A stretch of DNA of 64,000 nt from an uncultured Candidatus Poseidoniales archaeon (GCA_964389655.1 CAYMED010000001.1:1-64000); one strand, 5' to 3'. Counted from the first letter of the stretch, positions 34,132 through 60,139 are shown. Notes: generated by a model from the sequence alone, not told the origin. A program made the numbers and translations.

Positions 34132-35094
34132 TCAATTCATCTTATTTGGTTCAATATATCCCTTCTTTTCGCGATATCTTAGCATTCTCTCGTTGAATTG
34201 CTTAAAAAAAGACCAATAGTGTTTTGCTCCTCTTCCAAACTTTTTCGGTGCACCTTTATCTTGGAGAAGCACTATCGGAGCACCATAGTTTACAGCTTCA
34301 GCAATGGCAATTCTTCGGAAGATGACTGCTGGTTCTTCGAACACTTGATGGTCAAAACGCCGCCGAATTTCATCTGAGACCATTTCATGTAATGTTGTAT
34401 TTTCTCGCATGGTTTCCAGTATTCCAAACAATTTGATTCGGGGGTTTAATTGTCGCTTCAATTGATTCACAGTTTCAAGCATTTGTCCCAATCCTTCAAT
34501 TGCATACCACTCTGGCTGAACGGGGACTAAGAGGAAATTAGCAGCAACAAGGGCATTTATTGTCAGTAAACTCACGCTGGGTGATGTGTCGATAATGATG
34601 TGATCAAATTCAGATGCCACTTCATTGATGATGTCTCTCAACCTTGTTTCTCGGCCGATTTTATTTGATAGTTCGATGTTTGCCCCGGTTAAATTAATGT
34701 CTGATGGCAAGATCCACAGGTTTGAAACTTGGAATGTGTCTTCCGGTATTTTCCCATTTGGTGTAGCGGATCTTCTTTTTCCTTGCATTGATTCTGTGAT
34801 AAGTTCAGGCGTGAGCAAATATTGTTCGATGTTGCGCAAGATTTCTCCATCGTCGTCCATTAATAGATTGGAGATTGTATGTTTCACCAGTGATTTTTCA
34901 ATGCCAAAACTAGTAGCAACATTTCCTTGAGGGTCTAAATCGATAAGCAATACTTTCTGTGGTTTGATTCCATCTTCAGGGTCTCCTTTTGAGAGGGCAG
35001 CTGCCAAATTTACAGCAGTGGTTGTTTTTGCACAACCTCCTTTCATATTTGATACAGCAATCACTGATTTGTGTGGGCCGTATCCGATGCTCAA
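34132..35094 (-). CDS. parA: ParA/Soj family ATPase
   Basis: Deviant Walker A NMKGGCAKTTT, LLIDLDPQGN, IIIDTSPS, NALVAA...PVQPEWYAIEG and IAEA..YGAPI. Confidence 0.9.
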   Translation of the reverse strand: MSIGYGPHKSVIAVSNMKGGCAKTTTAVNLAAALSKGDPEDGIKPQKVLLIDLDPQGNVATSFGIEKSLVKHTISNLLMDDDGEILRNIEQYLLTPELITESMQGKRRSATPNGKIPEDTFQVSNLWILPSDINLTGANIELSNKIGRETRLRDIINEVASEFDHIIIDTSPSVSLLTINALVAANFLLVPVQPEWYAIEGLGQMLETVNQLKRQLNPRIKLFGILETMRENTTLHEMVSDEIRRRFDHQVFEEPAVIFRRIAIAEAVNYGAPIVLLQDKGAPKKFGRGAKHYWSFFKQFNERMLRYREKKGYIEPNKMN

Positions 35095-54458: not shown

Positions 54459-55970
54459 ATGTCCTTCTCAGTCTCTCAAGAACATTTTTTTGATACCATA
54501 TTGGTGGCCAATCGTGGTGAAATTGCAGTCCGAATACTTGATGCAATACGTGTTGCAGGCTTTCGATCTGTAGCGATTTATTCTGCAATAGATTCTCAAG
54601 CAATGCATCTTTCTCATGCAGATATCACAGTTGAGATTTCAGGCGATGATTTACACAGCACATACCTCAATATTTCTAGTATCATTAATGCAGCCAAGAG
54701 AACCAAAGCGGATGCAATTCACCCAGGATATGGCTTTCTTTCAGAAAATGGCGATTTTGCGCGGGCAGTTATCGAAGAAGGCCTTGTTTGGATTGGCCCA
54801 CCTCCTAGTGCGATAGATTTGATGGGCGATAAATTAGCGGCCCGTCGCTGTGTACTGAACGCAGGTATTCCTTTGATACCCGGAATCGAAATCCCGAGTG
54901 CCTTGGATGAACATGCAGCCATAGACCTCATTTCATCATTGGGGACTCCTCTCATGCTCAAAGCAGCTGCTGGCGGCGGTGGGAAAGGAATGCGTCGTGT
55001 TACTCAGTTAGATGACATTGGTGAATCCTTTTCTTCAGCACGTAGGGAAGCCCAGTCCTCTTTTGGAGATGGAAGAATTTATGCCGAAAAATTGCTTGAA
55101 CATAGCCACCACGTAGAAATACAAATTGTAGCAGATCTACACGGCGAAGTAGCTCATTTATTGGAACGCGAATGCTCAGTTCAACGCCGCCATCAAAAAG
55201 TGATTGAAGAGGCCCCTTCGCCATTCATTAATGTTGAGACGAGGAATGCAATTTGTGAATCGGCAATTGCAGTTGCGCGATCAGTCAATTACGTTGGAGT
55301 TGGAACAGTAGAATTTCTAGTGGATCAGAATGGGGATCATTACTTTCTAGAAATGAATACTCGGCTACAAGTTGAACACCCAGTTACAGAAGCAATATCT
55401 GGTGTGGATCTAGTCGACCTTCAATTCCAAATTGCAAGTGGTTCTCGACTCCCCCCTGCATTGGCGGGCATTTCTGCAAAAGGTCATGCCATGGAAGCCC
55501 GGGTTTATGCTGAAAGCCCGCATAATGGTTTTCTTCCTTCGACTGGAAAAATAGAATATCTTCGATGGCCAATTGGTCCGGGAATTAGAATTGATGCAGG
55601 TGTCTTGGAAGGTGACAAGATCGGTGTAACCTTTGACCCAATGCTTGCTAAAATAATTGCTCATGGGACTAGCCGAGAAATTGCTCGGCGTCGATTAATT
55701 TATGCACTTAAAGAGACAATTCTCTTAGGCGTATCAACAAATATCGGTTTTCTGATTGACGTGTTAGAGCACCCTGATCAAATTGCAGGTCGAATCGATA
55801 CGAATTGGATTGACCGACTAGGTCAATCGGAAATTATGCCGACTTTAGACCCCTCAATTGCAATTGCAGCAATTGCCTTTTTTTCTAAATCAGGTGCTTT
55901 GCCAACTTCTAGGGGTATCAAGGGCCCGCCTCAGAGTCCTTTCCTGACACTTTCTCGTACATATCCATAA
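54459..55970 (+). CDS. Biotin carboxylase subunit of acyl-CoA (methylcrotonyl-CoA) carboxylase
   Basis: ANRGEIA, HPGYGFLSEN, GGGGKGMR, RECSVQRRHQK and EMNTRLQVEHPVTE. Confidence 0.93.
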   Translation: MSFSVSQEHFFDTILVANRGEIAVRILDAIRVAGFRSVAIYSAIDSQAMHLSHADITVEISGDDLHSTYLNISSIINAAKRTKADAIHPGYGFLSENGDFARAVIEEGLVWIGPPPSAIDLMGDKLAARRCVLNAGIPLIPGIEIPSALDEHAAIDLISSLGTPLMLKAAAGGGGKGMRRVTQLDDIGESFSSARREAQSSFGDGRIYAEKLLEHSHHVEIQIVADLHGEVAHLLERECSVQRRHQKVIEEAPSPFINVETRNAICESAIAVARSVNYVGVGTVEFLVDQNGDHYFLEMNTRLQVEHPVTEAISGVDLVDLQFQIASGSRLPPALAGISAKGHAMEARVYAESPHNGFLPSTGKIEYLRWPIGPGIRIDAGVLEGDKIGVTFDPMLAKIIAHGTSREIARRRLIYALKETILLGVSTNIGFLIDVLEHPDQIAGRIDTNWIDRLGQSEIMPTLDPSIAIAAIAFFSKSGALPTSRGIKGPPQSPFLTLSRTYP

Positions 55971-55982
55971 GGAGGTTCAATA

Positions 55983-56483
55983 ATGAGTGAGTGGGTGGTA
56001 GAAGGTGATTCAAGACCATGGAGATGCTCAAAGGTTTCTACATCGGAAGTATGCATTTCTTCTGAAGATTCTGATGACAGGATTTACTCTATCTCAGAGT
56101 ATAGCGGCAATAATAAATATCTCATTTCCGATGGGTCTCAATCAAATCTTGCTCATGTTGTTCAACATGATGGAAAATATTGGGTACATGTGAATGGAAG
56201 GATTCACGTATTGGTGGAAAGAGATGAAAAAAAAGCGAATTCTGACCTGAAATCACCATTGATCACAGCACCCATGCCTGGTAAAGTGCTCGAGGTTCTA
56301 GTTGACCTTGGAGAGATTGTTGAATCAGGGCAGACGTTGCTGGTCATCGAAGCAATGAAGATGGAACACAGAATTAAGGCCTCAATTGATGGCGTGATTG
56401 AAACAATAGAATTTGGAATTGGTGATCAAATTGAAGTCGGTGATTTCTTGGTCAGAATTGCTCCAATTGGTTTGGATCAATGA
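55983..56483 (+). CDS. Biotin carboxyl carrier protein (BT-like + biotinyl domain)
   Basis: APMPG and EAMKM. Has its own GGAGGT SD immediately after the upstream stop. Confidence 0.92.
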   Translation: MSEWVVEGDSRPWRCSKVSTSEVCISSEDSDDRIYSISEYSGNNKYLISDGSQSNLAHVVQHDGKYWVHVNGRIHVLVERDEKKANSDLKSPLITAPMPGKVLEVLVDLGEIVESGQTLLVIEAMKMEHRIKASIDGVIETIEFGIGDQIEVGDFLVRIAPIGLDQ

Positions 56484-57995: not shown

Positions 57996-58325
57996 TTGAG
58001 CCAAGATATGGTTGATGGGCCCCGGCAGATTATCATTGGTAGTAAACCGTTGCATGTCTATGTGGCAGCAGTACGCACCGTCATCGAGAATGAATCAACT
58101 CATATTTGCTTAAGCGGGCGTGGAAAATCAATCCGAACAGTCGTTGACGTTGCAGAAATATGCCGGCGCAGACATGGGACCATTGCGTCGGGACTTCCCG
58201 AAGGAATCCATATTGTTTCAGTCAATACGGATACTGAACAATTGAGCCGTGACGATGGCGGCACGTCATCGGTCAGTGTTCTTCGTATCATCATGGATGT
58301 AGGAATAAGTGATGGGGAAGAATGA
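57996..58325 (+). CDS. albA: DNA/RNA-binding protein Alba
   Basis: IIIGSKP...YV.AV, GRGKSI..VVDVAEI and VSVLRI. Confidence 0.85.
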   Translation: MSQDMVDGPRQIIIGSKPLHVYVAAVRTVIENESTHICLSGRGKSIRTVVDVAEICRRRHGTIASGLPEGIHIVSVNTDTEQLSRDDGGTSSVSVLRIIMDVGISDGEE

Positions 58326-58421: not shown

Positions 58422-59447
58422 ATGAGTTCTGATGTTGTCTCTCAGCATGATCCTAGCGATACAGTTGCAGGCCCAGAGGTGCGGGCTGAAATGGAACAAG
58501 CTTACCAATCCATGCGCCGTAAGATGAGAGTTCAATCACTAGGTGACCGAATAAAGCGTACAATCATGGTTTTATCTGGGAAAGGGGGTGTTGGAAAATC
58601 TACTGTTGCAGTTGGCCTTGCCCTGTCTATGGCTGAACGAGGGATGAAAGTTGGCTTACTAGATATTGATATCACAGGACCTAATGTTCCTAAGATGCTT
58701 GGCATAACTTCAGCCGACCTTTCAGTTGAAGATGGCTTGATTGTACCTGTTTCAGCAACTCGCGGCGTCCGGATGATATCAATGGGCCTTCTCCTTGAGG
58801 AAGAAGATAAACCTGTAGTTTGGCGTGGCCCAATCAAACTTGGAGCCATTCAGCAGTTCATTGGGGATGTTGCTTGGGGGGATTTAGATGCATTGGTAAT
58901 TGATTTCCCCCCTGGTACTAGTGATGAGCCTTTGACAGTGGCACAAACTCTCCCGCACGTGGATGGGATGGTTGTGGTAACAACTCCCCAAGAAGTTGCG
59001 ATCTTGGATAGCCGCCGCGCAGTGAAATTCGCTGAAACTCTCAAAATACCAGTGCTAGGGATTCTAGAAAACATGAGTGGTTATACTATTGAAGGAGTGG
59101 TAAAAACATCTGATGGGGCCTCTCTTTCTAGTGCAGAAGTAAGTATCATGGGCCCTCGCGAGATACCACTGACTACGCAGATAAAAGATGATGGTAGTTG
59201 GTCAATCGAAATAGATCTATTCAAGCAAGGAGGCGGAAAATTAGCTGCTGATGATTTAGGTGTCCCATTTCTTGGCGCACTTCCATTTGACCCTGGTGTG
59301 GTTCGGAGTGGAGATGATGGTGTGCATCGCATCATATCAGACCCGGATGGGAGAACAGCTCTTGCATTTCAGGGTGCAGTATCTTTAATTCTTGAGCACC
59401 TAAATACTGATGCATCAGAAACACGCGAGTCTCCTCAAATATTGTAG
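58422..59447 (+). CDS. Mrp/NBP35 (ApbC) family P-loop ATPase, cysteine-free variant
   Basis: SGKGGVGKST, DIDITGP, VVWRGP, WGDLD.LVIDFPPGTSD, VTTPQ and ENMS. No CxxC. Confidence 0.9.
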   Translation: MSSDVVSQHDPSDTVAGPEVRAEMEQAYQSMRRKMRVQSLGDRIKRTIMVLSGKGGVGKSTVAVGLALSMAERGMKVGLLDIDITGPNVPKMLGITSADLSVEDGLIVPVSATRGVRMISMGLLLEEEDKPVVWRGPIKLGAIQQFIGDVAWGDLDALVIDFPPGTSDEPLTVAQTLPHVDGMVVVTTPQEVAILDSRRAVKFAETLKIPVLGILENMSGYTIEGVVKTSDGASLSSAEVSIMGPREIPLTTQIKDDGSWSIEIDLFKQGGGKLAADDLGVPFLGALPFDPGVVRSGDDGVHRIISDPDGRTALAFQGAVSLILEHLNTDASETRESPQIL

Positions 59448-59455
59448 CAATGGAG

Positions 59456-60139
59456 TTACGAAATACACGCTTTCCAAGCAGTATCAATATCAATCTCAGT
59501 AGCAACAGCGGAAGTAAGGTTTACTTCTGGGCGTGGGCGATTATTGACACCAGGGTTCATTTCGCTGATTATATCTACAGTGGTCTGGCTTGCAGGATCT
59601 GAGACCCGTCCGAATGGCGAGTTTGAATCATTCAGTTCTGCTCCATCCCAATTGGTAGATAGAATCATCCATTGTGAACCTGCTGGCTCATCACTGCCTC
59701 GGATTGTAGTAATTACTCCAGTGTCATGTCCAAATCCAGTGTTATTTTCAGGAGGGATCAGCCAAGTTTCTGAATTTTCTTGGTCGCCAAGGCCATGATA
59801 TGTGATTGCATGCCCGCCAGAACCATCACCATGGGTAAAATCTCCTCCCATTATTGCTCGATTTAGAATAATTTGATGAATTGGGGTTTGGTTATAATAT
59901 CCCGATTTTACAGTTTCTAGAAAATTCAGTGAATGATTGGGTTGTCCGGGGCAAAGATCAACTCGAACGGCTCTTGATGTGCGCCCATCTTCAGAGTCCC
60001 ATTCAAAAATAAGTTCAACACGAAAACCACTTTTTTGCTCATCTTCAGACTCACTATTTGTTGCAGAATCTTTTTGACCACTTAGACAACCCTGTAAAGC
60101 GACTAATAATACCACAAGAGAACAACTATATTTCCGCAT
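59456..60139 (-). CDS. Cyclophilin-fold lipoprotein (degenerate active site)
   Basis: Lipobox LQGC, NF..LV..GYY, GGDFTHGDGSGG, GSQW and PFGRV. Confidence 0.75.
   Translation of the reverse strand: MRKYSCSLVVLLVALQGCLSGQKDSATNSESEDEQKSGFRVELIFEWDSEDGRTSRAVRVDLCPGQPNHSLNFLETVKSGYYNQTPIHQIILNRAIMGGDFTHGDGSGGHAITYHGLGDQENSETWLIPPENNTGFGHDTGVITTIRGSDEPAGSQWMILSTNWDGAELNDSNSPFGRVSDPASQTTVDIISEMNPGVNNRPRPEVNLTSAVATEIDIDTAWKACIS

Follow-up and report, generated by a model that had tools for sequence, protein, structure and literature searches.

A cysteine-free Mrp/NBP35-type ATPase of Poseidoniales archaea with a predicted beta unit in place of the CxxC loop

Mrp/NBP35-type ATPases and the gene in the window

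A named signature of the Mrp/NBP35 family of P-loop ATPases is a conserved C-terminal CxxC, which ligates a bridging [4Fe-4S] cluster (PMC6345978). In the plastid protein HCF101, which is without CxxC, three other cysteines hold a [4Fe-4S] cluster (PMC2805927); the premise of the initial annotation of the locus described here, by which scaffold function requires the CxxC, is therefore too absolute. HCF101 carries a fused DUF971 domain (PMC11838916). A related dimeric ATPase resembling Mrp, HypB of Thermococcus kodakarensis (3vx3, 5auo), acts through the small cysteine-bearing metallochaperone HypA. Thermococcus HypB has no metal site of its own. In the literature on CxxC-less Mrp proteins and on the Fe-S biology of Poseidoniales, no description of the variant reported below was found.

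The gene lies in a window of 64,000 nucleotides (the whole stretch of DNA analysed) from an uncultured Candidatus Poseidoniales archaeon (GCA_964389655.1, CAYMED010000001.1:1-64000). It is separated by an AT-rich spacer of 96 nt from an Alba gene on the same strand. The features are as follows, in window coordinates.

57996..58325, + strand: Alba gene (Pfam PF01918), a neighbour and not a functional part
58422..59447, + strand: gene of the cysteine-free Mrp/NBP35-type P-loop ATPase (P0001); ORF with ATG start, 341 aa
58473..58550, + strand: long N-terminal helix before the ATPase core, residues 18-43 (AF2 secondary structure)
58575..58604, + strand: deviant Walker A motif SGKGGVGKST, residues 52-61, with signature Lys54 and P-loop Lys59 (translation, alignment)
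58662..58685, + strand: switch I region DIDITGPN, residues 81-88 (translation, alignment)
58893..58925, + strand: Walker B / switch II, LVIDFPPGTSD, residues 158-168 (translation, alignment)
59067..59081, + strand: ENMSG block, residues 216-220, the end of the core strand normally followed by the CPxC loop
59082..59213, + strand: predicted beta insert replacing the CxxC loop, residues 221-264 (AF2, conservation)
59106..59126, + strand: loop extension of seven residues (229-235), restricted to the long insert variant (occupancy 0.07 among relatives)
59214..59237, + strand: DLFKQGGG block, residues 265-272, at which the alignment to the family is taken up again

Further motifs of the protein are WRGP (134-137), DFPPGTSDE (161-169) and ENMS (216-219), and the nucleotide motifs fall in columns that vary hardly or not at all across an alignment of 146 sequences. 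Pfam finds the ATPase domain only, without DUF59 or DUF971: PF10609 (NUBPL/Mrp; IPR019591) scores 283.2 bits (cut-off 27.1), its match being divided in two at residue 228, that is, at the insert. A phmmer search of the PDB returns Cfd1 (6g2g), AF2382 (2ph1, 3kb1) and ApbC (8zkc) at E 1e-47 to 1e-49, MinD, FlhG and ParA relatives following at E 1e-14 or weaker. The full-length AF2 model built with the 146-sequence alignment has an overall pLDDT of 89.3, and Foldseek matches are led by ApbC 8zkc (E 5e-24), Cfd1 6g2g (E 8e-22) and 2ph1 (E 2e-20). The NCBIfam equivalog models for ApbC (NF008669, 186.7 bits) and MrpORP (NF041136, 307.8 bits) stay under their cut-offs of 348 and 450 bits, respectively.

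Among dimeric P-loop ATPases of the Mrp/NBP35/ApbC type, the window protein represents the form found in Poseidoniales (Marine Group II), and its motifs for ATP binding and hydrolysis are intact, as is the predicted fold. With ApbC/Mrp, Cfd1, Nbp35 and Ind1 (8zkc, 6g2g, 2ph1, 3kb1) it shares about 34% identity in the core, comprising the P-loop, the deviant Walker A, the switches and the ENMS...GGG framework, as well as the fold. Unlike these proteins it has neither the CxxC nor any other cysteine. Its N-terminal helix, which is poorly conserved (column entropy 0.88 against 0.28 in the core), is likewise free of cysteine, in contrast to the N-terminal cluster site of Nbp35 with its Cys motif.

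The segment in place of the CxxC loop

Translation and the 146-sequence alignment agree with the initial annotation that the Mrp/ApbC motifs are intact and that the 341-aa protein contains no cysteine at all. The 42-aa segment it had placed at 59082-59207 corresponds to residues 221-262, as quoted, and is followed by E-IDLFKQGGG. The loop position of the C-terminal CxxC is occupied by residues 221-264. When aligned to Cfd1 (6g2g) with HMMER, query residues 43-223 correspond to residues 5-199 and query residues 265-294 to residues 207-236, about 41 residues of the window protein standing against about 7 in Cfd1; the CPxC loop of the family has roughly 8 residues. Between ENMS and [ILV]F..GGG, 87 representatives that bear CxxC have a spacing of 12 residues and 104 Marine Group II sequences one of 39; a spacing of 46 is seen in the window protein, P0057, P0058, L013 and the same-genus genome G201. 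Compared with ApbC, Cfd1, Nbp35 and Ind1, the window protein thus has a net gain of 34 residues, and most of its relatives one of 27, predicted to form a beta unit at the site of the CxxC.

Cysteine-free ORFs are not rare in themselves, making up 6.6% of crude ORFs of 280-400 aa in the same genome; the feature that is not due to chance is the clade-wide loss of the CxxC of the family together with the insert, not the absence of cysteine alone. Among the best 120 matches to the protein, 78 are without cysteine and 40 have a single one, at positions that are not conserved. These counts also bear on the idea that the protein itself still holds an Fe-S cluster or another metal through Asp, Glu or His residues in or near the insert, which is very improbable. 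A partly conserved acidic turn within the insert, T-D-E-D-G at residues 254-258, would offer such ligands, but it is conserved in just 63-66% of relatives, and acidic turns are a usual feature of Big-type strands. To our knowledge, no transferable [4Fe-4S] site ligated by oxygen and nitrogen alone exists in the Mrp/NBP35 family.

In the full-length AF2 model, the insert is formed by four strands at residues 221-226, 239-243, 249-253 and 259-264, with pLDDT values of 87-93. The excised segment (residues 213-273, modelled with a 56-sequence alignment) keeps the same four strands at about 90 pLDDT and is therefore predicted to be a self-folding unit. By these models, the insert is an autonomous four-strand beta unit in place of the cluster-bridging CxxC loop.

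The likeness to prealbumin-like and carboxypeptidase-regulatory domains proposed in the initial annotation is real as a pattern and stays below threshold as a profile match. The insert shares the strand pattern G.a.p...V.v.gp.g.p....tD..G.W.. with Big_6 (PF17936) and CarboxypepD_reg (PF13620), the matches being sub-threshold or borderline: the window's insert reaches 18.6 bits (E 0.0025) against PF13620, below the cut-off of 32.3 and over positions 1-43 of 82 only, and the excised short variant P0035 reaches 27.8 bits against PF17936, whose cut-off is 27.6, over positions 11-54 of 83 only. Both matches extend over just the first half of the beta-sandwich domain, and the insert, with its four strands, differs from Big_6 and CarboxypepD_reg in amounting to about half a domain. 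It is also embedded in a loop of a cytoplasmic ATPase, whereas the Big_6 and CarboxypepD_reg domains are found in secreted multi-domain protein. Structural searches with the isolated insert gave weak matches throughout, the best VIA Z scores being 4.7 for a complement MG domain, 4.1 for a SusC NTE and 3.3 for the transthyretin-like domain of carboxypeptidase D, with invasin/intimin Big domains also among the weak matches and Foldseek at E 0.24 or weaker. These matches are consistent with a partial Ig-like or prealbumin-like unit and are not diagnostic. A tblastn search of the whole genome for a donor of the insert returned nothing better than E 0.5.

The framework of the insert (Y221, G225, G244, P245, G258, W260 and L264) is 98-100% conserved among 119 relatives, and its surface positions are variable. 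Across 31 independent pairs with 80-95% amino-acid identity, the ratio pN/pS reaches 0.32 within the insert and 0.11 in the remainder of the protein; pN in the insert is 0.24 and pS is saturated at 0.75, so that only pN/pS ratios are quoted and not dN/dS. The insert is constrained, less strongly than the core.

Distribution, copy number and recurrence

The best 120 matches in an index of 5.8 billion proteins are all 59-66% identical to the window protein and about 337 aa long, and those with a named source are Mrp/NBP35 proteins of Thalassarchaeaceae or Thalassarchaeum. A full-length, intact copy at 59-66% identity and without internal stops is present in 63 of 66 genomes of family f2 and in all 89 of family f3. 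GTDB species genomes yielded 295 relatives; the 80 loci among them that were kept and read all come from Poseidoniales / Marine Group II MAGs and from two single-cell genomes, AG-422-I18 and AG-422-I20, which carry the cysteine-free insert form. With the same architecture in about 150 Poseidoniales genomes, closed or near-closed contigs and the single-cell genomes among them, with frames intact and with unremarkable GC content over the insert, an assembly or binning artefact or a decaying pseudogene is scarcely conceivable, and nothing was found in favour of either; the local misassembly that the initial annotation had considered is excluded.

When the insert columns were left out of the tree, the Marine Group II proteins grouped as a single clade (99 SH-aLRT), so that cysteine loss and insert together mark out a clade, the order Poseidoniales, a question that the initial annotation had raised. 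The window's genome, which is 93% complete, yielded neither a second PF10609 gene nor a canonical CxxC paralogue. Exactly one PF10609 match (E <= 1e-10) occurs in 38 of 40 relatives that are at least 90% complete, and in these the sole match always stops at about profile position 180, the insertion point; a canonical CxxC paralogue, whose coexistence had been raised as a question, was not found in these 38 relatives either. The gene is single-copy, near-universal in Poseidoniales and under purifying selection.

Other SIMIBI ATPases of the window's genome are two ParA-like proteins and one of the Get3/ArsA type with 423 aa; the three loci are 34132-35094 (- strand) in the window, contig C6 of this genome (G000; L002:1414-2271) and contig C15 (L004:373-1641). 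The copy in G201, a genome labelled as the same genus (C44:8235-9224, L146), is only 63% identical here, has no cysteine and has the long insert with the spacing of 46. The long variant is also found in genus g11 of family f2, and the seven-residue loop was therefore gained or lost more than once.

Marine Group III, the sister lineage within the same class, has instead a protein of the HCF101 type (430-476 aa) in which DUF59, Mrp and DUF971 domains are combined. These proteins share the Mrp core and the tie to DUF971 with the Marine Group II form, but lie across a split of 100 SH-aLRT from it, in the other major half of the family tree. Three of the five Marine Group III proteins examined keep CPECG. 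In genus g25 (L036, L037), the CxxC has been lost with no insert gained, the sequence at this place reading ENM[AS]GF.PP.SDEIFHIFGEGGG, and the fused DUF971 is also without the DGH histidine, whereas the sister genera (L038-L040) keep both CPECG and DGH. The Marine Group II protein thus resembles plastid HCF101 and genus g25 in being without CxxC; unlike HCF101, it has no cysteine for a cluster, and in place of the fused DUF59 and DUF971 of HCF101 it has neither domain, DUF971 being a separate gene.

Among the nearest representatives at 50% identity, about 20 of about 110 are without CxxC, several of them with no cysteine, and the state without CxxC accounts for 13 changes on the tree. Inserts of beta pattern at the same loop, again without CxxC, are present in P0125 (326 aa), P0171 (379 aa) and P0196 (385 aa); the latter two also carry DUF59, and P0196 comes from a bacterial MAG. 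Forcing all insert-bearing proteins together on a 38-row subset of the 109-row tree costs 81.7 log-likelihood units (p-AU 1.6e-5, a value weakened by the group having been named after the first tree was seen). Either the insertion occurred more than once or the module moved between lineages. That beta inserts at the Mrp loop arose at least twice suggests selection for a module at that place.

The recurrent loss of CxxC would also fit another reading, namely that the insert is a neutral or purely stabilising decoration of an ATPase or chaperone whose activity is ancestral and essential, cluster binding being dispensable; the protein would then be an ordinary Mrp lacking an optional feature and would do nothing new. 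The many changes on the tree for the state without CxxC, the cysteine-free representatives and the loss in genus g25 with no insert to accompany it all speak for it, but the invariant framework residues, the purifying selection on the insert across the order and the repeated arrival of beta inserts at one site speak against it, and the CxxC is treated as essential in vivo in ApbC and Nbp35 (PMC6345978). On balance, we regard the decoration as unlikely.

In the bacterial MAG GCA_024228395.1, a gene for a 72-aa Cys4 zinc-ribbon-like protein (PF20097, DUF6487; L062:4621-4839, + strand) overlaps the stop codon of P0271, a bacterial DUF59-Mrp protein with an insert and without CxxC. The pair may represent an analogous split of ligands onto a small partner, a parallel that is anecdotal.

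DUF971, the neighbourhood and a proposed mechanism

Neighbourhoods of 11 kb were compared for synteny in ten genomes of Poseidoniales. The conserved order comprises a large surface protein, Alba (in some), an LMW phosphatase or ArsC-like gene, Mrp, a small protein, PAP2, NadA and a Bud32/RIO-like kinase. The LMW phosphatase or ArsC-like gene lies divergently upstream of Mrp in most Poseidoniales, and a PAP2_3 protein directly 3' of Mrp or of Mrp-DUF971 on the same strand; neither adjoins Mrp in the window. The PAP2_3 protein is a membrane protein of about 690 aa with an N-terminal PAP2_3 domain, seen in loci L051-L060 of families f2 and f3 (e.g. L059:6099-8234). Of the ten other 11-kb loci examined, four have Alba close to Mrp; in L051, L054 and L057 it stands beside the LMW phosphatase gene that adjoins Mrp, and in L052, L053 and L055 another small ORF is found there. 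The window's own neighbours, Alba, a cyclophilin and SerRS, were considered as conserved Mrp context and rejected, as they are not generally kept next to Mrp. The cyclophilin-type PPIase (59456-60139, - strand; 227 aa, extended at the N-terminus by about 58 residues) is convergent to Mrp and represents a lineage-specific rearrangement, because other Poseidoniales have DUF971 and PAP2 at that place. Two genes further upstream in the window (54459-56483, + strand) seem to encode components of an acyl-CoA carboxylase, a biotin carboxylase (503 aa) and, after it, a biotin-carboxyl-carrier protein (166 aa).

The small protein that follows Mrp is a stand-alone DUF971 (PF06155, E 1e-13) of 117-120 aa. 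In 71 of 73 f3 genomes it begins 50-90 nt 3' of Mrp, on the same strand, with a gap of about 300 nt in three; the two genomes without the adjacency are split into 320 and 360 contigs. In family f2, the adjacency was found in none of about 37 genomes checked, and the two genes are 119-133 kb apart in the four genomes that have both on one contig. The window's genome has its DUF971 on another contig (C19:10667-10915). In all, 150 of 151 Poseidoniales genomes, the window's own included, have a single copy of DUF971. The Marine Group II protein has four conserved cysteines, CPCAxC and a fourth in GC[SN]SG, the position of the fourth being a histidine in the solved homologue 3luu and in the CxxC-bearing Marine Group III fusions. 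The resulting Cys3His site in 3luu, like that in gamma-butyrobetaine hydroxylase, may be structural zinc rather than a cluster site.

The place of DUF971 downstream of Mrp in f3, along with its C-terminal fusion to the Mrp domain in Marine Group III, argues that Mrp stays in a Mrp-DUF971 module of Fe-S maturation. In bacterial mutant and transposon screens, DUF971 is cofit with Mrp (bioRxiv 10.1101/072470). The adjacency alone is weak evidence, because the whole neighbourhood is syntenic across Poseidoniales, including the LMW phosphatase, the PAP2 membrane protein, NadA and the Bud32/RIO kinase, which are probably functionally unrelated. The window's genome also encodes SufB and SufD, two A-type carriers and a Nfu-like domain, so that a cluster-carrying Mrp is not obviously needed; a stand-alone DUF59 gene is present elsewhere in the genome.

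The same observations bear on the proposal of the initial annotation that this is a repurposed ATPase which exchanged its cluster for an interaction or dimerisation module. Part of it, an autonomous beta unit predicted at a dimer-axis position, has stood; as for the rest, the link to DUF971 argues that a role in Fe-S biology persists. Taken to its full extent, repurposing would mean that the ATPase has left Fe-S biology and that its beta module binds a new client or structure, for instance in ParA/MinD-like positioning or as a membrane-associated switch, the PAP2-type membrane protein encoded downstream in most Poseidoniales being a candidate client. Such a departure, which we consider doubtful, is favoured by the absence of every cysteine and of N- or C-terminal Fe-S-related domains, and the 690-aa PAP2_3 protein does follow Mrp or Mrp-DUF971 on the same strand in f2 and f3. 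Ig-like modules are typical protein-protein interaction units. However, the core is far nearer to ApbC and Cfd1 (E 1e-49) than to MinD, FlhG and ParA, the genome already has two ParA-like ATPases and a Get3-like one, the PAP2 gene does not adjoin Mrp in the window, and the association with DUF971 points back to an Fe-S module.

The reading that we prefer, with the chances for and against it about evenly balanced, is that the protein works as an ATP switch free of any cluster, with inserts that come together at the dimer axis, and continues to take part in Fe-S maturation together with DUF971. The lack of linkage to DUF971 in family f2 and in the window's genome, and the possibility that the site in DUF971 is structural zinc, speak against it. 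The protein itself would be unable to ligate the bridging [4Fe-4S] cluster. In solved Mrp/Cfd1 structures, the loop that is replaced here lies on the two-fold (dimer) axis, and by analogy with these homologues the two beta units of the dimer probably meet there. The paired units would replace the oxygen-labile cluster as an inter-subunit clamp, or would give a docking surface, and the ATPase would act as a nucleotide-driven switch or targeting subunit in the maturation of metal-cofactor (Fe-S) proteins. The cysteine ligands would be supplied by a separate partner protein, most likely the single-copy, stand-alone DUF971 protein with its four conserved cysteines (CPCAxC...GC).

This arrangement would be akin to that of the Mrp/MinD-type HypB of Thermococcus, which works through HypA. 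HypB matches the window protein in Foldseek at E 3e-18 with a TM of 0.89 on the target, and by sequence at E 2e-27 with 26% identity; it differs in being without the beta insert. The HypB likeness is a mechanistic analogy only. A HypB-like role in nickel handling was rejected, no HypA (PF01155) having been found in the 93%-complete genome.

A more specific version of the preferred reading is tentative, and we hold it possible rather than probable: two half-Ig inserts would pair across the two-fold axis into one inter-subunit sandwich that serves as the clamp, ligation would be outsourced to a Cys4 DUF971 protein docking on the sandwich, and this solution would have evolved more than once, in Marine Group II and in some bacteria. 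Such a solution would possibly be an adaptation to oxic, iron-poor surface water.

With both cysteines of the CxxC lost, Marine Group II, an abundant ocean lineage, must presumably use its sole Mrp/NBP35-type ATPase otherwise than as the textbook cluster carrier, and the annotation 'iron-sulfur cluster carrier protein' in its genomes is probably wrong in the literal sense. The repeated insertion of a beta module at one loop suggests that this site on the dimer axis is a structural hot spot. In the Mrp/NBP35 family, the role of ATP hydrolysis, apart from cluster binding, is still unclear (PMC6345978). A whole archaeal order that keeps the ATPase with all cluster ligands discarded is a natural separation-of-function variant, which would permit the ATPase or targeting role to be studied without the cluster and in which the role of DUF971 would be directly testable.
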